From assembly GCA_964540825.1 (NCBI GenBank), contig CAZINT010000004.1:88835-152834 (forward strand): DNA of 64,000 nucleotides, in the 5' to 3' direction. The notes under the pieces are model-generated. The model saw nothing but the letters and a program-made list of their open reading frames with translations, did not search any database and had not been told where the DNA came from. This DNA comes from an uncultured Gammaproteobacteria bacterium. GTDB lineage: Bacteria; Patescibacteriota; Patescibacteriia; Magasanikbacterales; GWA2-37-8. This document shows, in pieces, positions 6,147 through 26,000 of this stretch. Position numbers and translations under genes: made by a program. Within the stretch, counting starts at the first letter, position 1. The number at the start of each line of letters is the position of its first letter.

Positions 6147-7326
6147 ACGCTGGTGGTTTATTGCCGGACGTACCCCGCTTGTTTCTTTTGCTGAAATTAA
6201 AACTTTATTTAAAAACGGTTCTCATGAAATTACCGGCCCGCTTATTCGCACTACCTGGAGCGAAATTCCTGGCGCTACCCCGGCTGAAGCGATTAAACGT
6301 CTGGGCGGCACGGTTAAATTAGGCGAGGAACTTACGCTCAACGTTTTAGAAAACGATCTTCAAGCAGCAATGCTCACCGAGCTGGAGCGACTTGAAGGTA
6401 AAATCGAATTTGGCATCAGTCTTTACACCGGAGTCGATACTGTACGTCTTGGAACACTCGAGCAGCTTGAACGCTGGGGTAAAGCCTTAAAACAAAAACT
6501 TAAAAAAACTGGAATATCAGTCCGCTACGTTGAAAGCCGAGAACCAGTGCTTTCATCGGTAAGCGTTGAAAAAAACGGTCTTACTAAACGAGGCTTAGAA
6601 TTTTTAGTTTACGAGGAATCGGACGGTTCTTTTTCGCTTGCAAAAACTTTGGCCGTACAGCCATTTGAAGCATTAGGTGCCCGTGATTTTGGCCGCCCCG
6701 GACGCGACGACACGAGCGGCATGCTCCCCCCAAAACTCGCTCTCATGCTGCTTAACTTAACCGGCGCCGAGAAAGACCAAACAGTACTTGATCCATTTTG
6801 CGGATCGGGGACTATAGTGACCGAAGCGATGCTTGTAGGGTTTAAAAAAATTATTGGCGCAGACTTATCTGACAAAGCGGTTGAGGATACCAAAAAAAAC
6901 GTTGCCTGGCAGCAGACTCAAAATTTTTCCTCCTCAGAAGTAAAAATTTTTCAAAGTGATGCGGCTGAACTTGACGGCAAACTTCCCTCCGAATCGATTG
7001 ACGCCATCGCCACCGAACCGTATTTAGGCAAACCACTGCGCGGCGGCGAGACCAAAGCCATGCTTGACACCCAAGTCAAAGACCTTAAACAAATCTACCT
7101 CGCCGCTTTTAAAGCTTTTAGTAAAATTCTTAAACCCGGGGCGGCTGTGGTATTTATTATTCCTTGTTTTAAATACCAAAATACTTGGCTTCGTATCGAC
7201 TGCGCAAAAGAAATAAAAAAATATGGTTTTATTCCATCCCCACTCCTTTCTGACAGCGACTTTGTCTTATATGCCCGGCCCAACCAGCGGGTGGGACGAG
7301 AAATTTGGCGCTTCAAAAAGAATTAG
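6106..7326 (+). CDS. SAM-dependent methyltransferase, UPF0020/THUMP-associated RNA methylase-like
   Basis: Motif I LDPFCGSGTIVTEAMLVG and motif IV-like ATEPYLG; start uncertain (ORF opens at 5926; 6106 avoids overlap with upstream gene). Confidence 0.6.
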   Translation: MFRSPSHSQPHGLKRWWFIAGRTPLVSFAEIKTLFKNGSHEITGPLIRTTWSEIPGATPAEAIKRLGGTVKLGEELTLNVLENDLQAAMLTELERLEGKIEFGISLYTGVDTVRLGTLEQLERWGKALKQKLKKTGISVRYVESREPVLSSVSVEKNGLTKRGLEFLVYEESDGSFSLAKTLAVQPFEALGARDFGRPGRDDTSGMLPPKLALMLLNLTGAEKDQTVLDPFCGSGTIVTEAMLVGFKKIIGADLSDKAVEDTKKNVAWQQTQNFSSSEVKIFQSDAAELDGKLPSESIDAIATEPYLGKPLRGGETKAMLDTQVKDLKQIYLAAFKAFSKILKPGAAVVFIIPCFKYQNTWLRIDCAKEIKKYGFIPSPLLSDSDFVLYARPNQRVGREIWRFKKN

Positions 7327-9163: not shown

Positions 9164-10234
9164 CTAGGTCGCGATGTGAAAATAACAAACGTCACCATCC
9201 TTTACCACATATTCTTTTCCTTCGAGCCGAAGCTTGCCGCTTTCTTTTAATTTTCCCCAACCGCCGAGGGTAACAAAATCTTCCCATCCAACCACATCGG
9301 CTTTAATAAAGCCCTTAATAAAATCGGTATGAATAACGCCGGCTGCATAGGGTGCTTTAGTCCCCGTATTCACCGTCCAGGCGCGCGTTTCGGGTTCGCC
9401 CGAAGTGAAGTAGGTAATTAAATTTAAAAGCTGGTAACCTGCCGTAATCAATTTATCTAAACCTGTTTTTTCAATTCCAAGACTATGTAAATATTCTTTT
9501 CCTTCTTCAGGCGAAAGATCGGCAAGTTCCGCCTCCATTCGAGCGCACACTTCAATTTGAGCCACTCCCGGTTCTACTTGAGTTGCAGCACTGCCGCTTT
9601 CGGCCACATTCACCACATACATCATCGGCTTCATGGTGATAAGCTGCAACGTCTTTAGCAGCACACGCTCATCATCAGTATACTCAAGCATACGCGCAGC
9701 TTTATTTTGCTGGAGCTGGTCGTAGACTTTTTGCAAAAGATCAATTTCTGGTTGTAATTCTTTTAGCGCCGTACCTTTGGCACTTTTTTTAGTCGTTTCA
9801 AGCCGCTTGCCCACCACCTGCAGGTCAGCCAAAACAAGTTCCGTATTAATAATCTCAGCGTCTTCAAGCGGATTCACCCGGTTGTGTACGTGGGTGATAT
9901 TATTATCTTCAAAATTACGTACGACATGAGCAATAGCATCAACTTCTCGAATATGTGACAAAAATTTATTACCCAAGCCTTCGCCTTCGCTGGCACCTTT
10001 AACCAAACCAGCAATATCCACAAATTCAATTGTAGTTGGAATTATTTTTTTGGACTGCGAAACGTCGCTTAGCTTTTGCAGGCGAACATCGGGAACTTCA
10101 ACCACCCCAACGTTTGGGTCGATGGTGCAGAAAGGATAATTTTGGACATTGGCCTGTTTCGTCCGGGTCAGAGCATTAAAAAGCGTCGATTTACCCACAT
10201 TAGGCAACCCGACAATACCAATAGAAAACGACAT
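9164..10234 (-). CDS. ychF: Ribosome-binding ATPase YchF (Obg-family GTPase with TGS domain)
   Basis: [24 protein letters not shown]1 motif, C-terminal TGS-type domain. Confidence 0.9.
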
Positions 10235-10349
10235 AGATTCCGAATAAAAGACTAATTAATCTTCCACACTATACCTAAGTACCCCAAATATCGCAAGGGA
10301 AACCATTGACTTCTCTTTCTGGGGTGCTATACTAACGACGTTAAATTTC

Positions 10350-10423
10350 GGGCCTTTAGCTCAGCTGGCTAGAGCGCTTCCATGGCATGGAAGAGGTCAA
10401 GGGTTCAAGTCCCTTAAGGTCCA
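10350..10423 (+). tRNA. tRNA-Ala (anticodon GGC)
   Basis: Cloverleaf folds by hand: acceptor GGGCCTT/AAGGTCC with G3:U70 alanine identity pair, D stem GCTC/GAGC, anticodon loop aTGGCat, T loop TTCAAGT; CCA not encoded. Confidence 0.85.
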
Positions 10424-10425
10424 CA
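10382..10425 (+). repeat. attL: 44-nt 3' half of tRNA-Ala (direct repeat copy 1)
   Basis: atggcatggaagaggtcaagggttcaagtcccttaaggtccaca identical to 19266-19309. Confidence 0.85.
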
Positions 10426-10554
10426 CTTTCGGCTTACGTTAGCCACTCTGTAGAATAAACTTCAAAAATACATTCAGCCCCCGACCCCTTTCGTCCAAAA
10501 TGCGGTCGTCGGCTCATGATACTGCAAGCAGATTTTTGCAGTATTTTTTGTTCT

Positions 10555-11448
10555 ATGAGTATCGAGTTATTATGCCAAAAATTCTGCGAATACCTTTCCT
10601 ATATTCGCGGCTTCGCACCGACCACCATCATCCGCTACAAGATGGTGCTAAAGCTGTATACCAACTTTGCCAAGATTACTACTATAGAGGAAGTAACCGA
10701 CGATAACACCCGTGATTTCTTCTACTTTGGCCGTACCGACCGTCGGTGGGCCTCAAATTCGTTCATCACCTACCACAAAACCCTGGTTGTTTTCTTCCGG
10801 TGGTGCGTAGAGCACCGATATATGGCTAAAAACCCGATGGACGACATCGAGATACCGAAGCTGCATAAGCGGTTGCCGCCGAAACTGACTAAACAGGACT
10901 CGCTGCGGCTACTGGAGGTGGTCTATAACTACCCGTATCACTATAGGTTTGAGCGCTACCGCAACCATGCGATCTTTGCTACCTTCCTTTTCACTGGTAT
11001 AAGGCGTAAGGAGCTAATAAATCTCAAGTTTACCGATGTTGATCTGCAAAACCTATCTATCTTCATCAACCAAGGCAAGGGTGGTAAGGACCGGGTACTG
11101 CCGATTCCCCTTACCCTGGCCGAAAGCCTCCGGCGCTACCTGGAGGAGCGGAAGCGGTTAAAAAAGACGTGTCCGGAATTCTTCGCATCCCTGTTTAAGG
11201 ACCAGGGGTTCACTACCAGTGGCCTCAAACACCTCGTTGACCGCTTCGTACCTGCCTCAAAAATACAGTTCAATATCCATCGGTTGCGGCACACTTTCGC
11301 CACTCTCATGCTGGAGGGCGGATGCGATATTTTCTCCCTATCTAAGCTTATGGGACACAGTGATATTAAGACCACCACCATTTATCTGGCCGCCAGCCCC
11401 GACCATTTAAGGGGGCAGATTATGAAGCATCCATTAAATAATATTTAA
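10555..11448 (+). CDS. Tyrosine-type site-specific integrase/recombinase (island integrase 1)
   Basis: C-terminal catalytic HRLRHTFAT...GH...Y signature (R-H-R-Y family); ORF opens at 10516, 10555 chosen as more typical N-terminus. Confidence 0.85.
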   Translation: MSIELLCQKFCEYLSYIRGFAPTTIIRYKMVLKLYTNFAKITTIEEVTDDNTRDFFYFGRTDRRWASNSFITYHKTLVVFFRWCVEHRYMAKNPMDDIEIPKLHKRLPPKLTKQDSLRLLEVVYNYPYHYRFERYRNHAIFATFLFTGIRRKELINLKFTDVDLQNLSIFINQGKGGKDRVLPIPLTLAESLRRYLEERKRLKKTCPEFFASLFKDQGFTTSGLKHLVDRFVPASKIQFNIHRLRHTFATLMLEGGCDIFSLSKLMGHSDIKTTTIYLAASPDHLRGQIMKHPLNNI

Positions 11449-11506
11449 CTCTATTTGCCAAATTCACCTCTTTGCCTTAGAATAGTTTAAAGTCTGTTTT
11501 CTTTCT

Positions 11507-12247
11507 ATGCCAAAATCCTACAAGCGCAACTACTTATCAAGCGTCATTTTTAGGCTTGATTTTTTTCAAGATATAGCGATAGGAGAACTTCGTGAATATA
11601 GTAAAAAAATTAAATCTATTTTACCAATTCGCGAAGAAAAGGAGGGCGTTTCCGGAATGATTAATCTTGATTTTACAAGTGGTGATGTGAGACAAGCAAG
11701 TAGAAAAATCTCTACATGGCTTTTTTCTAATAAGAATAAAAATAAAAAACTAGAAGTTGGTTTAAACTACATATACTTAGAATATACAAACCACTCATAT
11801 AAAAACTCTTTGGAACTTCTTTCTGATATTAATGCATTAATTTTTCCTTTTCTTGAAAGCTACGAAATTGGCACAGCTCGCAGAGTTGGCTTGAGGTACA
11901 CAAACGAAATAAATTTAAACGAAAAGAACCCTCTCGATTGGAGTAAATATATTAATAAAAAATTAATTGGTGGTTTAGACTTTGGTTCTAAAAAAATAGC
12001 ACGCTCAATGGGTCAGGTTATCTTAAAAGAAGAAAATGGTGATCTTGTTTTTAACTTTGGTATGTGGAACAAAGACTATCCAAATCAAATCTTAAATAAA
12101 GAATTTATTCTTGATTTTGACTGTTATTCAAATCTAGGAATCTCTAGAGATAAAATTATTGAGAGAGTTAAAGAATACAACAATATAATCGAGGGTTTAT
12201 TTGAAGACAGTATAACAGATAACTTTAGAAAAATACTTAATAAATAG
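11507..12247 (+). CDS. Hypothetical protein (island cargo; N-terminus YxxNYLSSVIFRLDF reminiscent of TIGR04255-type conserved hypotheticals)
   Basis: 246-aa ORF, very AT-rich, Lys/Asn-rich; family assignment is memory-based and weak. Confidence 0.45.
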   Translation: MPKSYKRNYLSSVIFRLDFFQDIAIGELREYSKKIKSILPIREEKEGVSGMINLDFTSGDVRQASRKISTWLFSNKNKNKKLEVGLNYIYLEYTNHSYKNSLELLSDINALIFPFLESYEIGTARRVGLRYTNEINLNEKNPLDWSKYINKKLIGGLDFGSKKIARSMGQVILKEENGDLVFNFGMWNKDYPNQILNKEFILDFDCYSNLGISRDKIIERVKEYNNIIEGLFEDSITDNFRKILNK

Positions 12248-12445
12248 CTGCCATGACAACCATAGACAGTGGAACCCTAAAAGCAAGTTACGCGGATTTT
12301 TCTAAATTCAACTCCAGCAGAAGCCCCGTAACAGGAAGCTTTCCTGGGAAAAATCTAGAGAGCACAAAAGACCACAACGCAGACTACAATGTTTTTAAAG
12401 GTTCTTATTCATACCCTATAAAAAGATCACGCTCAGAAAAAATCG

Positions 12446-13063
12446 TTGTGTATGTTCGCAAGCAAGATTAAGTCGCAATATATTAAGCTTAGAAAAAGCA
12501 GATTCTGCCAAGGTGACATACTCAGAGATATCTACATAAGTTTTGGCTCAGATCTGGGAGAATCAGACAAGAAGCAGCTTGAAAGACATTACTTGCCCTA
12601 CTGCATAATAATGACCCAAGATTGCGACCTTAACTCTGACCATGTAGAAAGAATAAAAAATAGGGGCCACGATAAATATTTGCAAGCGATTTTGCTATGC
12701 CCCGCTTATCAAGAAGATTTGTTTTTTGCTGGTACACATATAGAAAACTGGCAAATGCAACAAATGTCTTCAAAACTAAAAGATAGAATAAAAGAAAATA
12801 ATTATTTTGAACGGTACCACCACATTGAGGGCGATCACACATCTGCTATTCCAAATCTTGTAATTGATTTTAAGCATTTTTTTACCGTTCCTCGTGACTT
12901 AATTTATAAAGACCGAAAAAAAATCTATCTTATAACTCTAAATGAACTTTTTAGAGAGAGGTTGTCTCAAAGATTTGCCAACTACCTATCACGGTTTGGC
13001 TTACCAGATTTAAAAATCAGAACAGACAACCAAGCCCTCTCTGTTCCACAGGACTCCCCCTAG
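12446..13063 (+). CDS. Hypothetical protein (island cargo)
   Basis: 205-aa ORF with conserved-looking QGDIL and IIMTQDCDL motifs; upstream 72-aa ORF 12253-12471 overlaps by 26 nt in another frame (possible frameshifted single gene). Confidence 0.4.
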   Translation: MCMFASKIKSQYIKLRKSRFCQGDILRDIYISFGSDLGESDKKQLERHYLPYCIIMTQDCDLNSDHVERIKNRGHDKYLQAILLCPAYQEDLFFAGTHIENWQMQQMSSKLKDRIKENNYFERYHHIEGDHTSAIPNLVIDFKHFFTVPRDLIYKDRKKIYLITLNELFRERLSQRFANYLSRFGLPDLKIRTDNQALSVPQDSP

Positions 13064-13153
13064 AGAAATCCACATGTAAACAAGGGTTTGCCTAATTTAA
13101 GATTTAAAGGCTGTGCAGTCTTAAAATACCTCATTAAGGATGGGGTGTTTTTA

Positions 13154-13996
13154 TTATTGCACTACTGCAAAACGATAGGGAGGAAAGGGCTCTTCCTTGT
13201 TAGGATTTTTTATAATGGCTAGTGATGGGCCAGTCTTTAATAACAAAGAAAGTACGAGCACCTCGTGAGTAAATCCATTTATCTCATTAATTATTCTGTT
13301 TAAAAAAACACTTACTTCCTCTGGAGTAGAGCCATGAATAATATATTGAGGTGTTACCTGCTGCGTTACATGTTGAAAGGTTATATTCGAAACATTTTTT
13401 AAGCCTCCGTGATGTACAGGGGCATCTCTAAGCAATACTATATAAGAAATATATTCAATTCTATCCTCGATAAATTTTATTAAACTAATCGAGTTTAACT
13501 TGTGTCTTTCAGGAAGGTTGTTTTTTAATTGTTCTATTATACCTCGACCGCTCTCTTCCTTTCCGTTTTCCTTATTCTTTTGTTTATTCCAGCCTCTAAA
13601 TTTCAGATCAAATAAGGGATTAAAGGTCTTTGCTAAGGAATCTAGCGCAGCCTTAATTTGCGTTAAAACCGCATCAATTTCGCCATTTAAATCAGGTGAA
13701 TGCAAAGCCTGGTTCGTATTAGTTGGAGCATTTGAACATTTACTTTTAAAATCATTTATAACTTTTTCTTTCTGTAATAAATATTTTCTTCTATGACTAT
13801 TCGCTTTAAATAAAGCGTCGGTCACTCCTCTTACATGGTCAAAATATAAGTCATGTAATTTTTTATCTGCTAGTATAAAATCTCCTACCTGCAAGCCTAT
13901 TATCATACTTAGGGTGTTATCCAAAATTTCTTTGTCTAAAACATCCTGTGGTTCAAATAAGCTGGTTAATACAAAATTTTCAATTGGGTTTTGCAT
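13154..13996 (-). CDS. Hypothetical protein with R-x4-H-H-G-G (HEPN-like) motif
   Basis: 280-aa ORF; LLRDAPVHHGGL near C-terminal third; otherwise no recognisable domain. Confidence 0.45.
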   Translation of the reverse strand: MQNPIENFVLTSLFEPQDVLDKEILDNTLSMIIGLQVGDFILADKKLHDLYFDHVRGVTDALFKANSHRRKYLLQKEKVINDFKSKCSNAPTNTNQALHSPDLNGEIDAVLTQIKAALDSLAKTFNPLFDLKFRGWNKQKNKENGKEESGRGIIEQLKNNLPERHKLNSISLIKFIEDRIEYISYIVLLRDAPVHHGGLKNVSNITFQHVTQQVTPQYIIHGSTPEEVSVFLNRIINEINGFTHEVLVLSLLLKTGPSLAIIKNPNKEEPFPPYRFAVVQ

Positions 13997-14229
13997 AAAA
14001 TTTTAATTGTAGCTGTTGTGTAAATTAACTATTGCTTTCTTCTAGAGCATACAGTATTCTATATTTGCTGCCTATATTAATCAAAATAACCCTTTCACGG
14101 GCGACTGTTTCTATAGCCAATTGTGGCTAGAGATGGACAGTCGCACCTCCACAATTGGAGCCCGTAAGGGTTTTGATTAATGTGGGCAGCAGGTCGGCTG
14201 TCCTTTTTTATTTCAGCCCTTAAATACCT

Positions 14230-15183
14230 ATGTCTATTACAAAACTTAGTACCTGGCGAACTACATTAGGAATTGGTGTTGTTTTATCCCTACTTACTAT
14301 TGTAGGATGCGCGACCACGCCTACGTCCTCCATTGGTACGGATGGAACCTCGACCGCTATAGAGAATGATACCTTGTTGGCTGCAACCACAGCTAAAGTG
14401 GAATCTATAGATACCTCTAAGGATCAAAAACTGTCGGCCACAACGCCCACACAAACAAAAACTACGGATCAGCGAAAACCGACAACAGATACACCTACAA
14501 AACCGACCACTCCTCAGAACGATCTCTACACAGTTACCAAAGTCGTAGATGGCGACACTATCGACGTAACCAAAGATGGAAAAACCCTTCGTGTCCGGTA
14601 TATCGGCATGGATACCCCCGAAACCGTACATCCAAGCAAAGGCGTGCAATGCTTCGGTAAAGACGCTTCCAGCAAGAATAAGGAACTAATACTAGGTAAG
14701 CAGGTACGCCTTGAAAAAGATGTCTCTGAAACTGATCGTTACGGTCGGTTCCTCCGGTATGTCTATCTAGGTGACACTTTCATTAACTTAGAGCTAGTAA
14801 AGCAGGGTTACGCTACTGCCGCCACCTTCCCACCTGACGTTAAACACTCACAGGACTTCGTAGCAGCTGAGCGTGAAGCCAGAGAAGCCAAACGTGGCCT
14901 GTGGGCCTCCTGTAAGTCTACAGAGGCTACCAGCAGCCCTAAAACGACCACCACAAACCAACCAACCGCCTCAAATCCAACTCCGGCACCCACACCTACA
15001 TCTCCCACACCTAATGGCTGCACTATTAAAGGCAATATTAGTACTAGAAAAGAGAAAATTTATCACCTACCAGGGTGTGGCTCCTATACCAAGACTTCGA
15101 TCGACGAGAGTGCCGGAGAGCGTTGGTTCTGTACGGAGCAACAAGCGGTACAGGCGGGGTGGAGAAAAGCGGAAAACTGCTAG
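14230..15183 (+). CDS. Secreted lipoprotein nuclease, staphylococcal-nuclease (SNase/thermonuclease) family with YncB-type C-terminal domain
   Basis: Lipobox LLTIVGC, Thr/Pro-rich linker, SNase motifs [26 protein letters not shown]; C-terminal [23 protein letters not shown]...[21 protein letters not shown] as in Bacillus YncB. Confidence 0.8.
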
Positions 15184-15264
15184 AACACCATAAAATTATA
15201 GAGAAAAACAGGGCAAACACCCTGCTTTTTTCTTATTTAAAACATCTTAAAAGAATCATACTAT

Positions 15265-16557
15265 ATGATATACTCCTATCATATGAATGATCCAATTCGT
15301 CGTAAATTAACCGGGGAACTATCTATAAGCGCTGACTATAAAAATAACGAATCTACAAAATCTGTTGTTTTTCGTCGTTTAGTTGAAAAAAAATTTGTAG
15401 AAAGTATTCCCAGGGAAAAACTAGAGGAAATGATTCGGAACGATCTTAAAAAAGTTTCTATCACACCTGTAAATGGCATATTTAACGCTCACCAGTTATT
15501 TCACTATACTAATTCTGATTTTTTAAAAGATTTTGACTTTGGAAACACCTTGATTCAAGCTCATATACCATATTGCCTTCATTTTCCCAATCATTACGAA
15601 ATAATTGTAGATATTCCTGAAAAAAAACTAGAAGCCCTTGTTATCTTTGAAAAAATCTGGACGAGCCGCGCCCAAACAGAAGACAAAAAGTCAGATACCG
15701 TTGATTTCTTTGCGGAAGACTGCGTAACTTATTTTAAGGATAGTATTATCCAGACCCCTCAAATACCTTTATCCGCTCAAGAGGGGTGGGAGTCTCTTTT
15801 TACAGGAACGAACATAGAAAAAATGAGTGACCAGAACGGCATTTTTCGTTTTACAAGAGTTCTTATCCAGTTTGATACCAATTTTCCGCAAGATATGAAC
15901 CAGGGCGACTACAAATCTTTGTTGCCACGAGTCGAGGAAATAGCACTTACCGCTATTAACCGCGTAATTGATGTATATCGCGAGGTCACAAATGAATTTT
16001 TCATAAGAAGACTTGGAAGTTTAAATATAAATTTAATTTATTTTATTCCTAAGAATGAAGGTTTTTACCTACTTCCTACCAATATTGAAACAGCAAAGAT
16101 TAACCGATCAGGCAAAGAAATTGAAGAAATATCAGCTAAATTAGAGGCGGGACACAAACCAGAAGTTTACAAGTTACTTTTATTTAACGCATATAGTTCT
16201 TTTGAAACAAAGGATTACACATTGGCTATAGTAGAATCATTCCAGTCTCTAGAAATTTTTTTGGAAAATTATTTAGTAAATCTTTTCAAAGTAAAAAATA
16301 TTCATAAAAAAGAATATCGTAAAATCCTCAAAAAAAACTGGAAGACAAAAGATAGATTAACCGAAGTGCTCAAAAATCTTATTGGGGTGTCTCTCGATAA
16401 ACAACTAAATATTTGGCCTAAATGGTGTGCTCGCTACGATCAAACTCGTAACAGAGTAATACACGGAGGCAAAGAACCATCACCGTTAGAAACCAAGGAA
16501 ACACTGGAAATTAACCAGAAAGTTATTGAATGGCTAAACTCAATAACGACTAAATAA
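15265..16557 (+). CDS. Hypothetical 430-aa protein with C-terminal HEPN-like R-N-x3-H motif (candidate abortive-infection/toxin RNase)
   Basis: C-terminal WCARYDQTRNRVIHGGKEP fits the common RNxxxH HEPN signature; large uncharacterised N-terminal region. Confidence 0.45.
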   Translation: MIYSYHMNDPIRRKLTGELSISADYKNNESTKSVVFRRLVEKKFVESIPREKLEEMIRNDLKKVSITPVNGIFNAHQLFHYTNSDFLKDFDFGNTLIQAHIPYCLHFPNHYEIIVDIPEKKLEALVIFEKIWTSRAQTEDKKSDTVDFFAEDCVTYFKDSIIQTPQIPLSAQEGWESLFTGTNIEKMSDQNGIFRFTRVLIQFDTNFPQDMNQGDYKSLLPRVEEIALTAINRVIDVYREVTNEFFIRRLGSLNINLIYFIPKNEGFYLLPTNIETAKINRSGKEIEEISAKLEAGHKPEVYKLLLFNAYSSFETKDYTLAIVESFQSLEIFLENYLVNLFKVKNIHKKEYRKILKKNWKTKDRLTEVLKNLIGVSLDKQLNIWPKWCARYDQTRNRVIHGGKEPSPLETKETLEINQKVIEWLNSITTK

Positions 16558-16571
16558 CATCTTCAAATCAT

Positions 16572-17366
16572 ATGGTTGTAAATAGTCGTAAATTAAAAAA
16601 CGCTATCTCAAATAATATAAAAAATTACTTTGCCAAGGATAAAACGGTTTTTGATAACCTCAATTCCCTATTCAACCTTTTGTTTGACCACCCGGTTTAT
16701 ATTGAACGAGCTAAAAGGGTGCGGGGTATTTTTCTACTTCCAAAAGACACTGGCCTGTTGTCAGGTGAAGAAGCGTTGGTGTGGGAAAACGATAATGGAG
16801 ATAAATTAAAAAAATTGCGTGACGCCGTCACAAAACTCCTAACTGGTTTTGCTATTCCTGAGGCTTTTCGGGACCGTGTTTTTTATTTTACTTATGACTA
16901 TATTATATCTAAAAATAGCATCCTCTCTTTGTTAGTCGAAAATTTTGATAGCCCAAACCAGAAAGATGAGGGATACAAACGTGCCCCCAAACTACTTAGC
17001 TTCCGCACCGTTCACACCTTACCTGACCGTGAATTGAATAAATATTTGTTGGACACCAACGCCTTATACCTTCAAATAGGCCCTGGTATGAACTTAGCAA
17101 CACTGCAAAAAGTCTACACGGAAGTAATTATGAAAAATAAAGAACAGCTTTTACCGCTTGAGGCACCGAGTCCAGAGGAAAAAGCGCGACTGATCTGGCG
17201 CATGCGAATGGAAAAATTTAGACCTAAAAAAATTATTGAAGTTTTGAAGATAAAGTATATTCATGAGCCAATAAAAATCGACCACCACTTCGTCAAAACA
17301 AATACTTACCGCTACACCAAAGCACTTCAGACACTCAAGATGTTTGATCCAAAAAAGTATTTATAA
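16572..17366 (+). CDS. Hypothetical protein (island cargo)
   Basis: 264-aa ORF 14 nt after previous gene, followed by clean terminator. Confidence 0.45.
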   Translation: MVVNSRKLKNAISNNIKNYFAKDKTVFDNLNSLFNLLFDHPVYIERAKRVRGIFLLPKDTGLLSGEEALVWENDNGDKLKKLRDAVTKLLTGFAIPEAFRDRVFYFTYDYIISKNSILSLLVENFDSPNQKDEGYKRAPKLLSFRTVHTLPDRELNKYLLDTNALYLQIGPGMNLATLQKVYTEVIMKNKEQLLPLEAPSPEEKARLIWRMRMEKFRPKKIIEVLKIKYIHEPIKIDHHFVKTNTYRYTKALQTLKMFDPKKYL

Positions 17367-17367
17367 A

Positions 17368-17396
17368 AGAGCTTGCTAAAAAGCTCTTTTTCTTTT
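17368..17396 (+). terminator. Rho-independent terminator
   Basis: AAGAGCTT-gctaaa-AAGCTCTT followed by TTTCTTTT. Confidence 0.65.
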
Positions 17397-17500
17397 AACA
17401 AGTGTGCCAATATTTTTATCGGCTGATTTTTGTTACCCTAGGGTCAGTGTTTGCACGATAGCGACCACAATCTCATGTCCATAATGTCCTAGTTAAAAAT

Positions 17501-17965
17501 ATGCAGCCAAACGAAAAAGAGGACTTTGATTTAAAGTCGCTTGAAATTCAAGAGCGCAGACAAAAGGTCGAACAGTTTCATATTCAAGGCTTTTCTATCC
17601 TGCGGATGGCCCAAGAGTTAAAAGTAAACCCCCGAACCATTGTTCGCGACATTCAGGCGAACCGACAAGAACGGCTCTCTATGCTTGATGGGTACAGTGG
17701 AAGCATAGACTGGCTCCGTAACAGACTTGGTGATCACGTCAGTCTTATGGATAACGCCCGCTACCGCTTACTGCAAATTGCCGAAAACTCTACAGATGAC
17801 ATGGTAAAAGCTAAAGCCTTAAAACTCGCCACAGAGGTCGACAAAGACACTGTCGATACAGTTCTCAAACTTATGTGGTCGTTTAAAGATTTTATGTATG
17901 CTGGACCCTACCTTGCTAGACCTGTCGGCCTTAAAAAAGAGGACGGACTTCAGGAAAAAGCGTAA
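17501..17965 (+). CDS. Small HTH-containing protein (possible excisionase/regulator of the island)
   Basis: FSILRMAQELKVNPRTIVRDI helix-turn-helix-like segment; immediately upstream of second integrase. Confidence 0.45.
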   Translation: MQPNEKEDFDLKSLEIQERRQKVEQFHIQGFSILRMAQELKVNPRTIVRDIQANRQERLSMLDGYSGSIDWLRNRLGDHVSLMDNARYRLLQIAENSTDDMVKAKALKLATEVDKDTVDTVLKLMWSFKDFMYAGPYLARPVGLKKEDGLQEKA

Positions 17966-18132
17966 ATTTTCCCTTTCCTTGAAGCCGCCTTATAAAAACA
18001 TTTCTGAATGTCCGCCAGAGAAAAAGACTGATTACCTATTCTATCTGTACTTACGTGGCATGCAAACCGGCAGCGGACCGGATGTTAGAAGGTTTCTTGC
18101 AGCCACTAATCAATTGCCAGAAAAAAAATCTT

Positions 18133-19083
18133 ATGACTCACAGCCTACAAGAACTGCATAAACAATTTATAAGGGAAAAAGAACTGGTTGATGAGTTTCG
18201 GCCTGCAACTTCAACAAATCATCGGGTAACTCTTGATTTACTATTAAAATTTAATCCTGCTATAACCCTAGCAGATCTAACCTATACTACTATGCTTGAT
18301 TTCTTTCAATTTCTAAAAAAACGCACAAGATTAGTTAGCGGAAGTGCTTCCAAACAAGGAGTTAAAACATCGACCTTAGCCACCCATTACGGAAAGCTGA
18401 ACACCTTTCTTAAGTGGCTTATCGTACACAACCACTTAGCGGAGAATCCTTTAAAGGACATCCCCTACCCCGAACCTGATTATAGTGATCGTCGGGCTTT
18501 AGACGAAAGTGAGTTGGCAAAAATTTTCGGCGCACTAGAGCACGGCATTGCCTACACCGATCTTTTTCGAAAAAAGCGTGACGCTGCTATATTTGCGGTA
18601 CTGCTTGGATGCGGCTTACGAAAAAATGAGCTTGTTAATCTCAGACTTATTGATATCAATCTCGAAAAACGTGAGCTTCGTGTGCGAAAGGAAACTTCTA
18701 AATCGAAAAAAGATCGTCATGTAGGTTTGAATTCAGACGTCACCATGCGTCTTGAAGATTACCTAAAAGCCCGCAGTGAAAAAGGCTACCAAAATGAATA
18801 CTTGTTTGTTTCCACAACTCATGACAATAGGTTTACAGCTAACGGTTTGAAGCACCTGATTCAAAGAGTCATCAGCGCTTCTGGGGTAAAATTTCACCCT
18901 CACCGTTTCCGCCACACCTTTATGTGGAACGCTGTACGTGCCGGAGTGCATATTGTTAAAATTCAACAAATGATGGGACACAAAGATCTACGCATGCTTC
19001 TTACCTATGCTCGTGGTATGCCTGCTAACAGTATGCTTGGTGATATGGAGCGAATACATCAGCAGCACTTCTATAGAAAATAA
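18133..19083 (+). CDS. Tyrosine-type site-specific integrase/recombinase (island integrase 2)
   Basis: HPHRFRHTFMWNAV...GH...LLTYA catalytic signature; ORF opens at 18055, 18133 Met gives typical length. Confidence 0.85.
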   Translation: MTHSLQELHKQFIREKELVDEFRPATSTNHRVTLDLLLKFNPAITLADLTYTTMLDFFQFLKKRTRLVSGSASKQGVKTSTLATHYGKLNTFLKWLIVHNHLAENPLKDIPYPEPDYSDRRALDESELAKIFGALEHGIAYTDLFRKKRDAAIFAVLLGCGLRKNELVNLRLIDINLEKRELRVRKETSKSKKDRHVGLNSDVTMRLEDYLKARSEKGYQNEYLFVSTTHDNRFTANGLKHLIQRVISASGVKFHPHRFRHTFMWNAVRAGVHIVKIQQMMGHKDLRMLLTYARGMPANSMLGDMERIHQQHFYRK

Positions 19084-19265
19084 TTGCTTTTCTGCCATGA
19101 ATTTGATACTTTACAGATACTTTATTCAGCAAAAACTGCACGCATTTCACCGAGTCAGTTTGGGCAGAGAAGCGGTCGCGGGCACTGATGTAAATTCGAG
19201 TAAAATTCTACACTATTTTATCTCAACCAAGCCATGAAACCCATGTATTGGGACCGGTTGAATTG

Positions 19266-19309
19266 ATGGCATGGAAGAGGTCAAGGGTTCAAGTCCCTTA
19301 AGGTCCACA
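19266..19309 (+). repeat. attR: 44-nt copy of tRNA-Ala 3' half (direct repeat copy 2)
   Basis: Exact match to 10382-10425, followed by the tRNA's original terminator. Confidence 0.85.
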
Positions 19310-19335
19310 AAAACGGTATGCATACCGTTTTTTTA
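19310..19335 (+). terminator. Rho-independent terminator (original tRNA-Ala terminator)
   Basis: AAAACGGTATG/CATACCGTTTTTTT perfect hairpin plus U-tract. Confidence 0.75.
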
Positions 19336-19476: not shown

Positions 19477-19923
19477 ATGCGTTCACAGACGAGCTTGTTG
19501 TTGGTCGTCGTGGCACTTCTTGCCTCCGCCTGCACGCCGCAGCTGCAGGTTCGGGACCCCCGCCCGGAGATGAGGTCGGGCACGGTCTTCATGGCTGCAC
19601 AAGCCATGGCCGTGATGCCGATCAAGTTCGTCCCTGCTCCGCTGCCCTCCAAGCCGGGCATGTCCTACGCGTTCGATCTGAATGACGGCTTCGGAGAGCG
19701 CACGCTGCGCTGCCCAGGGAGCTACTCGCTCCGGGTGGCGCTCCGGCGCCTGGACGAAAAGGATGATCGTCAGATCGTCTATCCGCCCACTCGCGACACG
19801 AGAGGGCAAACCTCGATCACGATCGACCCCGTCCGTGCCAAAGGAGTGTATCCGGGAGTGCAGGTCGCCTACCTGGTCGACTGCATGATCCCGCCGCCTC
19901 GCGTGGCGACCCGAACGCCCTAA
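19477..19923 (+). CDS. Putative lipoprotein, strongly GC-rich gene (compositional outlier)
   Basis: AAGGAGG-6nt-ATG; signal/lipobox MRSQTSLLLVVVALLASAC; GC-rich third codon positions unlike neighbours. Confidence 0.55.
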   Translation: MRSQTSLLLVVVALLASACTPQLQVRDPRPEMRSGTVFMAAQAMAVMPIKFVPAPLPSKPGMSYAFDLNDGFGERTLRCPGSYSLRVALRRLDEKDDRQIVYPPTRDTRGQTSITIDPVRAKGVYPGVQVAYLVDCMIPPPRVATRTP

Positions 19924-20045: not shown

Positions 20046-23000
20046 TTATGGCGTGCTGGTTGGCGTCTCACTTTCCTCCGCCACGGACGGCGTTGAGCTT
20101 GCATCACTGGGCGGGGCTCCATCGAGCGCTGCGGTTGAAGAAGCCACCTCGACAACTGGTGTTTCCGCGGGAGAGGCGTCTAGCGTAGTCGTTGAAACGG
20201 TTTCAGGAACAGGATTACTTTTATTTTGATCTCGCCGTTTAGCGACCACAATCCAGTCAAACGTAGCAGTGCCAGCACTACCGTCAATTTCCCTTACCAC
20301 AAAACCTTGAGCTGATTTTTCAGCAACATAGACGCCCTTTGAGCCTGCTGAGGTAAGCGTCACCGTTACTTTAAGCGGCTGAGCCTGGTCAATAATATCC
20401 TGCGTTCCTTGATCGAAGACAATGCGTGCTTCGCCCGCGACAAGTGCGGACGAACTCGAGAAGACAAATTCTGATGTGGGCGACTGAACAGCAAACATAT
20501 CTTGCGTCCCGACCGATGTAGTAAGATGTGTTATAAAATGCCCCTCAGCATCAATAGACCATTTTTTATCTTTCGAAGTAATTGCCGCAACATTCAAAAG
20601 CACATGGCCTTGCAGGTTTAAATCACCGCCTTGATACATTAATTGTCCTTTTGGTGCTTCAACTTTCAAGTCATTACCACCATTTGCAAGATCAATGCCT
20701 TGAGCTGTTGCGAGCTGTTCTAGGTTAGTTTGGAGCGAGGTAATATTTTTGTTTTGTGAGTAGGCCCAACCGGTTCTAATGAGCGCGGGGATTTTTCCTT
20801 CGGTTCCACTGAAGGGGTCAAGCGCAATACCAATCACCCCAACCATCTTTTGGCTGTTATCAAGTGTGGGATCGTATTTCATCGCGTAGCCGGGTTTCGA
20901 CGATGCCACAAGAAGATCTCCGCGATTAATCAAACCATTTTCATTAACTACTTTAACCGGCACACGGCCAACCATAGCAAGCACAGCGGTAGTATCGGTT
21001 TTGCCCCTGCCTACCACGATGGTTGGGTTGGTTGAAATGACACCAGCAACTGCCACATCGTATGCCGCACCGCTGCGGCGATAGGTGTCCGGACTATTTG
21101 GGTCAACAATCATAACATCCCCAGCTTCAGCAATATCGTCAGCAGCTATATCTACACGTTCAGCTAAATCGCCGGGATTAGTCGAGGATCCAAAGGTTGC
21201 GCTCGCACCATAATAATTTCCCACGGTATTAACGTCACCATTAGCTGCTACGGAGAAAACCGGCGTGTCGTGCGCTCGGAGTGAAAACACAATTCGATCA
21301 GGCGTACTGGTTGGCGCAAAATTTGCGGCATTTAAAATAAACGCCCTAGCATTAGCAAAATCGCCCACATTTGAAGTTAAAAGACTACTTGTGGCAAACG
21401 AAATGGTATTGAGCGATGTCGAGAGGAGCGACAAGTTACCGTTGAGTGCAAAGTTATACGGCGTTGTTGAACTGCCGACAATAATATTCTTATTTTCCGT
21501 ATCAATGGTAAGTGTTTGGTTGAGGTTGCTCGTTGCCGCAGCGGACGAATCAATATTTACAAAGGTCGTAATCGTACCGCTGCCATTACCGGTAAAGTTT
21601 TCCATCGCAATACCAATAGTTGGCTGACCTGCCACAGCCTTAACCGCAACACCTGAAATTGACGAAGCGGAAAGTTTGTCCCCAACAGTAATTGGGCCGT
21701 TAAGGCTAGAAACAACTAAAGGCACGCGACCAGCCAAGGCCAGCGAGACCATTTTGGTTCCACTTGCAAAAACCGCGTCCTCCGGCCCCCACTCTGTCAG
21801 CAGCAGACCAGGTTTAGTCGAAACGATACCAATAGCGTGCGGGTGATCTTTAATATCAGCTTTTACTACTCGATTAGGATTATTTTTATCAAGCGCAACA
21901 ACATCACCTGGTTTTAAGGTTGGATCATCTGTCAGATATGATTCAGCTAAATCAAACCCGGAAAGATATGCTTGTTTGGCATAAATTTCTTGAGAATAGA
22001 TCTTATAAAAATACTGCCGTGAGTTACCGAGTGAAGTGCCTGAAAGAGCCGTTGTCGTCCTGCACCCGCCATTATCGAAATCATTGTCTGAGCACCCCTG
22101 CCACATCATCAGGTCTCCGGTGTCTGATTTGTAGTAAAAAGCAGTGAGGACACCGGCACCACTACGAACTAAAGACAGACCCTTGGTGTAATTAAAGGGG
22201 TCTGGCGACCCAAAAGGAAGTTGTGAATTTGTTCCTGAATAACAATTTACGCTGCCGCAGGAATAAATAAAGGGGTCGGTATCTGAATCAGTTATACGCT
22301 TTAAAAATGCAACTGCAGGTATTCCTCTACTGTCTATAGCAATACTTGGCCACGCCCCCTGGCTGCTCGTATGGTTTCCAACGGAAAGTGAGGTCTGTGA
22401 GATATTTGAACAAGCTGCGCTTTGACACGGACCAAAATACACGTTTGCATCTCCGTCATCATAGTAAGCTAAAAAAGGAACGCTTAACCCGCCAGGGCTT
22501 CCGGATTGGAAACCTCCATCAGCTTTGGCCATGCCAAGAGTAATATAACCACCTTCGTTTCCAACGTTATTGTCAATGGTATTGCCAAAAGAAAATGACG
22601 CACAGCGGATTGCTTGACAGTGAATCATCTTGATGGCGTTATTATTATCCTTAAACGCTATAAGTGGTGTGCCGTCTGAGGCGATAACCATTTTGATATA
22701 AGGATCAGTAGCGAGACTGGTTGACAGCGTAGAAGAAGCATCAAAGGCCGAACAATCCTCAGCAGTACAGTGTTTAAAAAGCAGATTATTTTCTGTTGAA
22801 TTTTGGTATGCTACTACCGGCATTCTATCCTGACCAACCGCTACTGCACTATATTTTCCATTATCCGAAAAAGTATCAAGCGTTCGGATACTAGCGGTAC
22901 TACAATCAACACTATAGCATTTCGCTAATTTAAGTTTTTGGTTAGTCGCATCATAATAAGTAAGAATCGGATACCCATCCGCACTGATGACCATAGAGGG

Positions 23001-26000
23001 ATTCTTACCGACATCCCCGGTCGAATCCAGGACTACTTCCGTATGAGAAGAACAGTTTTGAACACTACAGTGCATGACTATAAGATCAGCATTAGTAATG
23101 TCGTAATACGCAACAACCATAAGGTTATCACTGCCAACAACGGCAACTGGATAAGCGCCCACATCGTTTGTGGACACTAAAGTGCTTGAAGTACTTGTTG
23201 CGTTGCCTGCAATAGCGGTTGACGTAACGACACCGCTCAAAGGTACGATATTGCCCGCAATTTGGAGCGTACCGGAGCTAAAGATATTCCCGCTGCTATC
23301 AATATAAAGCCGACCAAGAGCATAAGCAGTGCTTGTATTAACCACAACCGCGGAAGTACGAGTAAATGTAGTTGTTGCCGAAAAAGTATTAAAACCAGTA
23401 AAATTTTGATCAGCTGTCAAAGAGGCTACATTAGCACCTCCGCCACAACCACTGCACGAGCCTACTGTAAGCGTTCCGATATAACCACTCGTTACATTTA
23501 AATTTTGAATGGTTGAACTTGCTGCTGTTGTGGTTGTAAATGTAGACGTTGCACTTACCCCGAGTGTTCCGGCAACATCTAATAAATTTACTGGCGCGCC
23601 AGTACCAATCCCCACATTGCCGCCAAAAATACCCAGCGTGTTTGCTTGGGATATAAAACCTGAAGCACCTCCGAGCCCAAAGCCAATTGAGTTAGTTCCG
23701 CCGCCGGTAATGGTCATATTTGTCCCAAGGGCAATTGAGTTGTTGCCTAGAGCGTGCGCTCCATTACCAAGCGCAATGGACGTGTCACCCCCAGCTTCAC
23801 TGCCAAAACCAGCTGCAAAAGCATTTTGATTCGTTACCGAGTTGCTACCGCCAAATGCAGCGCCATTATTTCCCGAAACGCTATTGCTTGCCCCCACCGC
23901 AATACCACGATCACTAACAATATTATTAAAACCAGCTGCAAAAGCATCACCCCCACTTGCAGTATTCCCCGTACCAAACACAGCCGAAGTATTTCCACTC
24001 GCTTTATTATTAAGGCCAAAAGCAACTGAATAATTTCCGATATTAGCATCGTCCCACTGTGTATTATTAACCGAACCAGCCCGAAACGCCGCTTTGTTTG
24101 GCACCCACATCAAACGAACACCTGCTCCATCATACGGTGTGACACCCGCCTCTCCAAGTGTGCCGATCGCCAAAATCGCCCCGTCTTTTATGGTAAATTT
24201 TGCCACCGGTGTTGAAGTGCCCACGCCAAGGCCACCGGAAAAGGAAGAGGTGGCGCTAAAAATATTTGAACCGGTAAATGTCTGATCAGCCGAGAGTGAT
24301 GCGCCTCCACCAGCCGAACAGCCTGTACACGTTCCAGTGACAACTAAATTGGTAATATTAGCCCGGGTGATCGAACTGCTGGCCATTGTAGTAGTGGTAA
24401 AAGTTGATGTACCCGTTACTGCAAGTGTACCGCCCACTGTCAAAAGTGAACTTGGAGTCAGTGTGCCGATACCAACATTACCGCCCATAATCGCTAACGT
24501 ATTGTTTTGGGAAAGCGTGCGAGAATTTGTATCAAGACCAATACCAACCGAATTATTTCCACTCACCGAAATTCTTGAGCCAAGCGCAATTGCCGAGGTT
24601 CCACCGGCGCTATTATTGGCACCGATCGCCGTAGAACCGGTGCCACCTGCAGAGGTATTGCCTGTACCGATCGCTGCTGCCGAGCTTGCGCCGCTCACCG
24701 TGTTGCTCAAACCAGCTGCAAAACCACCGCCGCCGCCATTAATAGTATTGCTCGTTCCAAAAGCAGCTGAGTAGGTTACTGTGACGTTATTACTGCCACC
24801 AAAAGCAACTGAGCCAGTTTGAGTAACCGTATTGCCGGTTCCACCTGCAAATGCCCTATCACCTGACACCTGATTATTTTCGCCAAAAGCAGCTGAATAA
24901 ACTCCGATATTTGCCGCATCCCACTGCGCCCCATTTATATAGCCCGCTCTAAAGGCGGCTTTGTTCGGAATCCACATAAGCCGCGTACCTGCACCATCAT
25001 ACGGAGTTGTACCTGCCCCGCCAAACGTTCCGACGGCCAAAACCGCTCCTTCACTCACCGTTAGCTTGGCTACTGGTGTTGACGTTCCCACACCAAGCCC
25101 AGCGCTAAACGAAGACGTCGCGCTAAAAACATTGGCACCAGTAAAGGTTTGGCTTGCCGATAACGACGCACCACTCGCTGCACAGCCAGTACACGTACCA
25201 TTTATAACTAAATTGGTAATATTGGCATTCGTAATGGTTGAACTGGCAATAGTCGTAGTTGTAAACGTGGTCGTAGCACTGAATACATTTAGGCCTGTAA
25301 AAGTCTGATTACCTGCTAAATACCCTAGCACGCCTGTGCCCCCAATGCTTGCTAAATTAATACCGCTTACCGTTCCATTAACTACCAAGTTGGAAACATT
25401 TGCATTGGCAATACTTGAACTAGCTATAGTAGTGGTGGCAAACGTCGATGTCGCACTAAAGGTATTGAGGCCAGTAAATGCTTGGGTATTGCCGAGATAT
25501 GCCAAAACACCCGTCCCAAAAATACTTCCGAGAGAAATGCCACTTACCGTACCGTTTACCGTTAAATTAGTGATGTTTGCAGTGCCGATTGTCGAACTGG
25601 CAACTGTTGTTGTGCTAAGTGTTGTAGTAGCGTTAAAAGTGTTTAAACCATTAAATATTCCTGAACCATTAACAACTAAACTATCCGCGGTCAGAGCATT
25701 AATACCGGTAATATTGTTACCTCCAAGCATTAAATTGCCGGCGAGCGTTCCGCCGGCGAGCGGTAAATAGTTACTTGCCGTGATAGAATCAGCCACCATA
25801 GCATCAGTAATACTGTTCGAGGGTAAAGAAACCGACCCATTAACCGTTAAGGCAACAATATTCGCACTATTTATAGTACTGCTAGCAATGGTAGAGGTTG
25901 TAAAAGTAGTCGTAGCATTAAAAACATTGGCCCCAGCAAAAGTTTGTGAATTAGCAAGGTAGGCCAAAACACCGGTACCACCAACACTCCCTAAATTTAG

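Follow-up and report, generated by a model that had tools for sequence, protein, structure and literature searches.

The tRNA-Ala island and its chromosomal site

We analyzed a 64-kb stretch of DNA (hereafter the window) from a metagenome-assembled genome (MAG) of Candidatus Magasanikbacteria, which belongs to the Patescibacteria or candidate phyla radiation (CPR). Within it, a tRNA-Ala(GGC) gene adjoins a genomic island that is bounded by two exact copies of a 44-nt direct repeat (10382-10425 and 19266-19309; spacing 8,884 bp). Ten open reading frames (ORFs) lie in this interval, and the first and the last of them encode tyrosine recombinases (PF00589), which we term Int1 and Int2. The two ends of the island, with their attachment (att) sites, arms and recombinase genes, are built as follows:

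10306..10333, + strand: promoter-like site of the tRNA gene (TTGACT-16-TATACT), native and outside the island, in a region collinear with the relatives L009 and L010
10350..10424, + strand: intact tRNA-Ala(GGC), composed of the native 5' half (10350-10381) joined to the att copy (ARAGORN, Rfam)
10382..10425, + strand: attL, the 44-nt identity block, which begins with the anticodon loop and ends 2 nt beyond the discriminator base (repeat search)
10426..10554, + strand: left arm of the element; contains the arm motif GCGGTCGTCGGC (10502-10513) and a terminator-like hairpin that belongs to the element (10518-10545)
10555..11448, + strand: Int1, Xer-like tyrosine recombinase of 297 aa, inward-facing and adjoining the tRNA, with the full R-K-H-R-H-Y set (ORF open from 10516)
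18133..19083, + strand: Int2, tyrosine recombinase of 316 aa, facing attR, with the full catalytic set (ORF open from 18055)
19084..19265, + strand: right arm of the element; contains the arm motif GCGGTCGCGGGC (19172-19183) and, immediately ahead of the core, 'aaccaagcca...ggttg'
19266..19309, + strand: attR, the displaced native 3' part of tRNA-Ala; a fragment, no gene
19309..19335, + strand: native tRNA terminator, outside the island; the hairpin and T-run themselves span 19309-19332, directly after the distal copy

ARAGORN (10350-10424) and Rfam (10350-10423) agree on an intact tRNA-Ala(GGC) at the left end, as the original prediction, made from the bare sequence, had claimed, and on direct reading of the sequence G3:U70 and the stem pairing of tRNA-Ala are in place. 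Neither program calls a tRNA at 19266, so the distal copy is a tRNA fragment and not part of a second complete tRNA gene, which had been considered beforehand as the counter-case. The repeat is confined to its two exact copies: no further copy with up to three mismatches was found in the window, and 0/100 shuffles matched. The flanks of the two copies share no sequence, so that the edges of the repeat are sharp. The terminator anticipated behind the distal copy is present as a terminator-like hairpin with a T-run. Two identical copies cannot prove which of them is the ancestral 3' end of the tRNA gene; its placement at 19266 is sound by analogy with the related locus L076, in which the distal half finds its pairing partner in the upstream native half alone. 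The 5' half of the window tRNA is read as native because its distance from the gene ychF matches that in relatives.

The repeat begins, at 10382, with the 7-nt anticodon loop ATGGCAT (10382-10388), which is enclosed by the stem halves CTTCC and GGAAG. The att of the island is of the anticodon-centred class, the commonest one among the tRNA gene (tDNA) islands catalogued by Islander (2,083 of 3,919 islands; 3,760 have a 3' fragment; PMC4383910). By analogy with the cores of the related loci L076 and L079, the crossover region is probably the 7-nt loop itself. The reconstructed attB, GCTAGAGCGCTTCC-ATGGCATGGAAGAGGTCAAGGGTTCAAGTCCCTTAAGGTCCACA-AAAACGGTATGCATACCG, folds as tRNA-Ala in ARAGORN, and the reconstructed attP, GGGACCGGTTGAATTG-ATGGCAT...GGTCCACA-CTTTCGGCTTACGTTAGCC, does not fold as a tRNA. 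In agreement with the original prediction, the island is AT-richer than its surroundings (GC content 0.391 against 0.465 in the remaining window), though unevenly so: Int1 and the nuclease gene SNase have a host-like GC content of 0.48, and the other cargo lies at 0.30-0.39.

By the definition used in Islander, the locus presents a tDNA island, as had been proposed: an intact tRNA at attL, a displaced direct fragment of the native tRNA 3' end with the native terminator at attR, a tyrosine integrase inside, and absence from relatives that keep the flanks. We consider it likely that the 8,884-bp segment is one integrative element with paired recombinases, integrated at the tRNA-Ala anticodon loop of a Magasanikbacteria chromosome.

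The placement of the host in Candidatus Magasanikbacteria and the choice of its relatives come from a search of one genome per species with the neighbouring protein YchF as the query. The closest relatives are L009 (YchF 96% identical) and L010 (94%), both of which are collinear with the window from its start to the 3' end of the tRNA and resume at the genes for a lipoprotein and a 2,260-aa protein. They keep ychF, tRNA-Ala and the downstream genes, and every island gene is absent from them. At the spot of the island, L009 carries 6.5 kb and L010 2.6 kb of other genes; these segments contain neither an integrase nor a tRNA fragment. Homologs of island proteins were found in none of the 57 ychF loci retrieved, in which YchF worked as the positive control. 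Because these loci lack island homologs and the relatives carry other DNA at this position, the island is specific to the window genome and sits at a locally variable spot.

The spot downstream of tRNA-Ala is a variable hotspot in this lineage. The segments that lie there in L009 (3250-9810) and L010 (7034-9632) differ, lack integrases and repeats, and include a TrmB-like regulator and large unknown ORFs, with a GC content of 0.63-0.68 in some 500-nt intervals. The tRNA-Ala(GGC) genes of L009 (9811-9884) and L010 (9634-9707) differ from that of the window (10350-10424) in the acceptor, D and T arms; the L010 tRNA region is ~84% identical to that of the window, and some of the changes in L009 and L010 are compensatory, despite an identity of 94-96% in the adjacent YchF. 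Directly to the right of attR, outside the island, a small lipoprotein ORF (19477-19923) has a GC content of 0.644, compared with 0.455 for the genome, and a 44%-identical homolog at the same place in L009. Also directly right of the island, the minus strand encodes a repetitive, probably surface-exposed protein of 2,260 aa (20046-26828), which is kept in both relatives.

A scan for the att 44-mer returned no IMG/VR match and five JGI metagenome matches, all of them intact tRNA-Ala genes of unrelated organisms; the whole window tRNA-Ala is identical to that of one unrelated metagenomic organism (L007). Such shared tRNA sequence, together with contigs assembled at k=31 that break inside the tRNA, could in principle point to an assembly artefact, in which an island from another organism with the same tRNA-Ala was stitched in via the shared 44-75 nt. 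We regard this as extremely improbable, as the right flank is syntenic with the ychF-tRNA locus of the relatives, and ordinary reads and k-mers of at least 55 span the 44-nt repeat, so that the right junction should be read-supported.

A recurrent pair of tyrosine recombinases

A tyrosine recombinase had been predicted at each end of the island, and both proteins match PF00589 (E 5e-29 and 1e-32). According to alignments with homologs, their probable true starts are at 10555 (Int1) and 18133 (Int2). The catalytic R, K, H, R, H and Y residues are invariant in all 12 recombinases aligned (12/12). Int1 and Int2 share 28% identity. Each has a simple two-domain build that lacks an arm-binding domain, and the closest solved structures are archaeal XerA and XerD; the N-terminal domain of Int2 carries a 10-aa basic insertion. 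Both proteins score below every NCBIfam cut-off for Xer or integron recombinases, with Int1 reaching 167 of the 220 bits needed for XerA, 159 of 335 for XerC and 157 of 330 for XerD.

The two recombinases also evolve at different rates. Int1 is slow-evolving, with 60-70% identity between elements; its homologs number more than 2,200, and the best 120 of them are 62-74% identical and ~297 aa long. Int2 is fast-evolving (35-50%), and 40 homologs were detected, the best being 48% identical. Among known phages and plasmids, no protein is closer than 28-31% to Int1 or Int2, and single-sequence scans of IMG/VR with both proteins returned one partial match at 34% only.

Six loci with Int1-like genes could be assessed, namely the window, L069, L076, L079/L080, L084 and L086; a further one, L073, is truncated where the retrieved stretch ends. 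In 6/6 of them, the window included, an Int1-like gene after a tRNA is accompanied by an Int2-like gene within 8 kb, and the Int2-like partners in the five related loci are 34-44% identical to Int2 (E 1e-63 to 1e-96). The order found in the window, with tRNA, Int1-like gene, cargo and Int2-like gene on one strand, is shared by L076, L079 and L086, and the Int2-like gene lies ~180-250 nt from the attR core in every case seen. The cargo of the relatives differs each time and comprises cyclic oligonucleotide-based anti-phage signalling (CBASS), restriction-modification and toxin-antitoxin systems; the sets include a DNA methyltransferase with a large unknown gene, SocA/Panacea with KAP-NTPase-like and Imm_superinfect proteins, and CD-NTase with Cap15. 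No cargo is common to the window and the relatives compared (L076, L079/L080 and L086).

The scaffolds L079 and L080, which come from two metagenomic samples, capture a related element in two states. In L079, a single 9,380-bp unit consists of its own tRNA-Thr, an Int1-like gene, nine cargo genes and an Int2-like gene. L080 contains two tandem copies of this type of unit, 100% identical over 9,388 bp and joined through the core CTTGGTAAT in an attP-type junction. Irrespective of whether L080 represents a true tandem or an assembled circle, the ends of a unit with both recombinases are joined at the core. The duplication of this unit as a block argues against two fused elements. The evidence thus supports Int1 and Int2 as a conserved two-recombinase module, and not as the integrases of two fused elements.

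An attP-type junction was observed in L084 as well as in L080. To the left of the junction in L084 (1-9540) lie a four-gene CBASS (SAVED, SMODS, Cap2, JAB), Phage_rep_O and a type IV secretion system (T4SS) coupling protein; this region represents either several elements arrayed at a single site or one far larger member of the family. L084 also encodes a third tyrosine recombinase (12966-13891), beside a tRNA-Ser.

The presence of two integrases in the same orientation had initially suggested either an integrase with a partner recombinase or a composite of elements integrated in tandem. The first option gains from the recurrence of the pair in five other loci, where both families occur with different cargo and a different tRNA. 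Under the second, two independent elements, one with Int1 and one with Int2, would have integrated in tandem at tRNA-Ala, and the att between them would have been deleted later. Tandem arrays at tDNAs are common (PMC4383910), and a composite would suit both the uneven GC content of the island and integrases that are only 28% identical. However, a search of the interior on both strands for the degraded third att that the original prediction had envisaged (exact, 3-mismatch, ungapped at >=27/44, and 16-24-nt sub-window scans) detected none, exact or degenerate. Each member of a tandem array in Islander has its own tRNA fragment, and only one fragment is present here; moreover, the duplicated unit of L080 holds both genes. 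We find a composite very unlikely.

The main rival to the paired-recombinase reading assigns integration to Int2 alone and regards Int1 as in effect a housekeeping Xer recombinase (for example, one for dimer resolution) that is linked to the tRNA and either carried along or depended on by the host. The abundance and close conservation of Int1 homologs (more than 2,200, with the best 120 at 62-74% identity and ~297 aa), its host-like GC content of 0.48, and XerA, XerC and XerD as its best family and PDB matches are all compatible with this proposal, as is the constant position of Int2 near the attR core. It is harder to reconcile with the location of Int1, which is enclosed by the att sites in the window, L076 and L079 and belongs to the duplicated unit of L080, or with the absence of Int1 from the ychF-tRNA-Ala locus of all relatives. 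Int1 also fails the NCBIfam cut-offs for XerA, XerC and XerD, and no GC-skew switch, the sign of a terminus with dif, was seen in the first 30 kb profiled. On balance, a housekeeping role for Int1 with Int2 as sole integrase appears unlikely.

Several observations weigh against a single element with paired recombinases. The arrangement of the pair varies, with Int1-like and Int2-like genes standing tail-to-tail in L069 and L084, and an Int2-like gene in L066 has a different partner and no adjacent tRNA. The pairwise distances of Int1 and Int2 are not significantly correlated, in a small, star-like sample (n=6, Mantel p=0.20), and the very high conservation and host-like GC content of Int1 also fit selection at the level of the host. 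The other DNA that relatives carry at the same spot makes the comparison one of presence and absence at a variable hotspot, and thus provides no clean attB. The original prediction had proposed to look for an empty site and for a circular attP junction: a clean empty site was found neither in the relatives nor in the JGI metagenomes or IMG/VR, and the attP junction of the window island was found in neither of the two databases. Logan contigs (k=31) break exactly at the 44-nt repeat, as expected, which has no bearing on mobility or circles.

Anticodon-loop targeting and a proposed mechanism

The related elements insert in tRNA-Thr(GGT), exactly in the anticodon loop, without repairing the split gene. 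A native tRNA-Thr 5' half that ends at the loop lies immediately to the left of the element in L069/L070, L073, L076, L080 and L086, and the native 3' half is found to the right of the Int2-like gene in L076 and L079; when joined, the native halves are called as tRNA-Thr(GGT) by ARAGORN. The att cores are the anticodon loop itself, ATGGTAA in L076 and TTGGTAAT in L079. The attR of L076 has diverged, with 36/46 identity to the tRNA of the element (local score 56, against a shuffle maximum of 34). Across the relatives, the elements carry a complete tRNA-Thr(GGT) of their own, ~120 nt inside the left end and with differing stems. In L084 (~9660-9960) and L086 (9690-~9965), this element-borne gene is itself split by a ~200-nt insert right after the anticodon; ARAGORN misses both interrupted genes, and the joined exons give tRNA-Thr. 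Group I introns have been reported in Patescibacteria tRNAs (PMC13011429); the insert of L086, which may be one of them, has no match in Rfam.

The window element instead restores tRNA-Ala by its 44-nt copy of the 3' half, followed by its own hairpin (10518-10545), a predicted terminator that could end transcription of the restored tRNA. The anticodon-loop targets seen are Ala-GGC, Thr-GGT and, in L081, the loop CTTTTAA.

Other insertions and repeats at tRNA genes were noted in the retrieved loci. In L066 (17023-17433), the 5' half of tRNA-Trp(CCA), as far as the anticodon loop, is present in two exact 38-nt copies with an 82-aa GIY-YIG ORF (17110-17358) between them; the arrangement looks like an insertion of the homing-endonuclease type by which the tRNA 5' half is duplicated. 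Another GIY-YIG ORF of this sort lies between tRNA genes in L079 (5101-5343). In L076, the last 26 nt of a tRNA-Met (6315-6340) are exactly repeated 159 nt downstream (6474-6499), which may be an integration scar.

Aligning the 130-230 nt stretches between core and recombinase gene, we further noted a motif, A(A/C)(A/G)GGTCG..GG, that is conserved on either side of the elements at a distance of ~95-120 nt from the core. Within the 64 kb, the exact motif GCGGTCGYSGGC has two occurrences only (10502-10513 and 19172-19183), each on the + strand. In addition, the final 40 nt of the right arm (aaccaagcca...ggttg) are similar to the arm at the L084 attP-type junction. The arm motifs are candidate accessory binding sites and have the appearance of vestigial tRNA sequence from the variable loop and T arm.

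We propose that a circular 8,884-bp form of the element would recombine through the 7-nt loop with the native tRNA-Ala(GGC) gene (attB), by site-specific exchange of the tyrosine-recombinase type. Its attP would consist of the right arm, the core ATGGCAT, the other 37 nt of the tRNA 3' half and the left arm, in this order. The tRNA would stay intact at attL, since its 3' half is supplied by the element as a perfect copy, together with a terminator hairpin of the element itself; the native 3' half with the native terminator would be displaced by 8.9 kb to attR. Int1 and Int2 would most likely cooperate at the att sites; the simplest arrangement is a heteromeric complex similar to XerC/XerD, in which the fast-evolving Int2, encoded beside the attR core, would supply target specificity and Int1 a conserved function. 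The GGTCG..GG motifs, ~100 nt out in both arms, might then serve as accessory binding sites. The window copy may still be mobile today.

Cargo, known systems and significance

Between the two recombinase genes, the cargo of the window island comprises the following:

11507..12247, + strand: TIGR04255-family protein, GC content 0.30 (family match; no assigned function)
12253..13063, + strand: two overlapping ORFs of 72 aa (12253-12471) and 205 aa (12446-13063), with no family or PDB match
13154..13996, - strand: o280, a 280-aa helical protein, probably HEPN-like, with R190-x4-H195
14230..15183, + strand: SNase, a secreted staphylococcal nuclease of the lipoprotein type with a C-terminal 'sunset' domain, GC content 0.48
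15265..16557, + strand: o430, a 430-aa protein whose N-terminal domain is beta-rich and whose C-terminal HEPN domain carries an invariant R395-x4-H400
16572..17366, + strand: o264, 264 aa, no assigned function, in operon-like arrangement with the HEPN gene o430 and followed by a terminator-like hairpin (17365-17390)
17501..17965, + strand: 154-aa helix-turn-helix (HTH) protein upstream of Int2

The cargo had been described as almost entirely uncharacterised. This applies only in part, since three ORFs encode the SNase lipoprotein, the TIGR04255 protein and a HEPN protein. The latter, o430, combines the four-helix fold with the Rx4-6H motif that characterize HEPN domains. The R190-x4-H195 of o280 is conserved in at least 90% of its 33 relatives, and a comparison of o280 with the o430 profile gave no similarity; o280 is probably HEPN-like. 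The 154-aa HTH protein is a candidate regulator or directionality factor. PDB sequence searches with five cargo proteins returned no match, and Pfam at E<=5 gave no credible match for the unknown cargo. The 'sunset' domain (NF051437) is also modelled by NCBIfam as a C-terminal extension of the ribosomal proteins L4, L17 and L20. As a whole, the payload of the window island appears exchangeable and conflict-related, and may have a role in defence.

Searches with Pfam, NCBIfam and PHROGs found no replication, transfer or virion genes among the island ORFs, so that dispersal of the element must rely on something else. The PHROGs matches of island proteins are limited to integrases, nucleases and one weak HTH match, and the island DNA has no match among 50,697 phage records.

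The island most closely resembles the tDNA islands of Islander (class A of Williams 2002; Hudson, Lau and Williams 2015, PMC4383910), with which it shares an intact tRNA, a displaced 3' fragment, an integrase inside and an identity block that runs from the anticodon loop to the 3' end. It differs from them in having two Xer-like recombinases in a conserved pair. The integrase search of Islander deliberately leaves out recombinases of the Xer subclass (PMC4383910), and elements such as the one in the window may therefore be under-reported.

Tycheposons of Prochlorococcus (Hackl et al, bioRxiv 10.1101/2020.12.28.424599) are likewise small cargo elements of streamlined genomes that target tRNA genes, have an inward-facing tyrosine recombinase, partial tRNA flanks and tandem junctions, and carry defence or adaptive cargo. 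In contrast to the window island, they are defined by a recombinase lineage of their own and by primase and helicase hallmarks, and a second, distal recombinase is not in the definition as quoted there. An assignment to tycheposons was rejected, as Pfam, NCBIfam and PHROGs detected no primase, helicase or polymerase in the island. Pipolins (PMC11551731) are also tRNA-integrated, flanked by direct repeats and reservoirs of defence genes; unlike the window island, they are defined by a primer-independent PolB, and no island ORF contains a polymerase domain. VPI-1 (PMC7574455) lies downstream of a transfer-messenger RNA (tmRNA) gene between direct repeats and has a mobility enzyme gene at each end (vpiT and intV), but VpiT is transposase-like, and the island is ~40 kb long, carries virulence genes, and belongs to an unrelated host and to unrelated recombinase families.

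With XerC/XerD and the single-Xer systems XerA, XerH and XerS, Int1 and Int2 share a two-domain organization of the Xer type without an arm-binding domain. The action of two paralogous recombinases on one site is the XerC/XerD principle (PMC9226527). Unlike these systems, Int1 and Int2 are encoded on an island, target a tRNA anticodon loop instead of dif and stay below the NCBIfam cut-offs, and they would act as a heteromer by our model only. Int1 was not classified as a chromosomal XerC, XerD or XerA, since it does not reach the NCBIfam equivalog cut-offs. A prophage or phage satellite was rejected for lack of capsid, terminase, portal and replication genes in PHROGs and of a DNA match to phage records, and an integron because its defining genes are absent from the island. 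In the literature, no description of paired Xer-like recombinases on tRNA-targeting elements of CPR was found; the search covered open-access papers, and its outcome is weak evidence.

The window island itself is an ordinary kind of element; it is the paired-recombinase chassis and the habit of its relatives to split and replace a tRNA gene that raise interest. Tentatively, these loci could belong to a large and apparently undescribed element family specific to Patescibacteria, characterized by the Int1/Int2 pair, insertion into anticodon loops and swappable defence cargo, in which most members split tRNA-Thr(GGT) and bring their own copy and the tRNA-Ala element is a derived variant. If so, a split, unrepaired tRNA-Thr together with the element-borne copy would make the host dependent on the element, and the tRNA-Ala element would have retained, or returned to, the classical way of regenerating the 3' half. 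Should Int1 and Int2 form an obligate heteromer, they would be an analogue of XerC/XerD encoded by a mobile element, and the pair provides a testable case of heteromeric integrases on such an element.

In current annotation, Int1-like genes are labelled XerC or XerD, and island finders that discard Xer-like recombinases would miss elements of this kind. CPR bacteria (Patescibacteria) have tiny genomes and few described mobile elements, and the exchange of defence genes among them is poorly known. A fixed two-recombinase chassis with swapped cargo (CBASS, restriction-modification, toxin-antitoxin, HEPN) would be a vehicle for this exchange in CPR, and the destruction of a tRNA gene by relatives that bring a copy of their own suggests an addiction-like retention of the element in its host.

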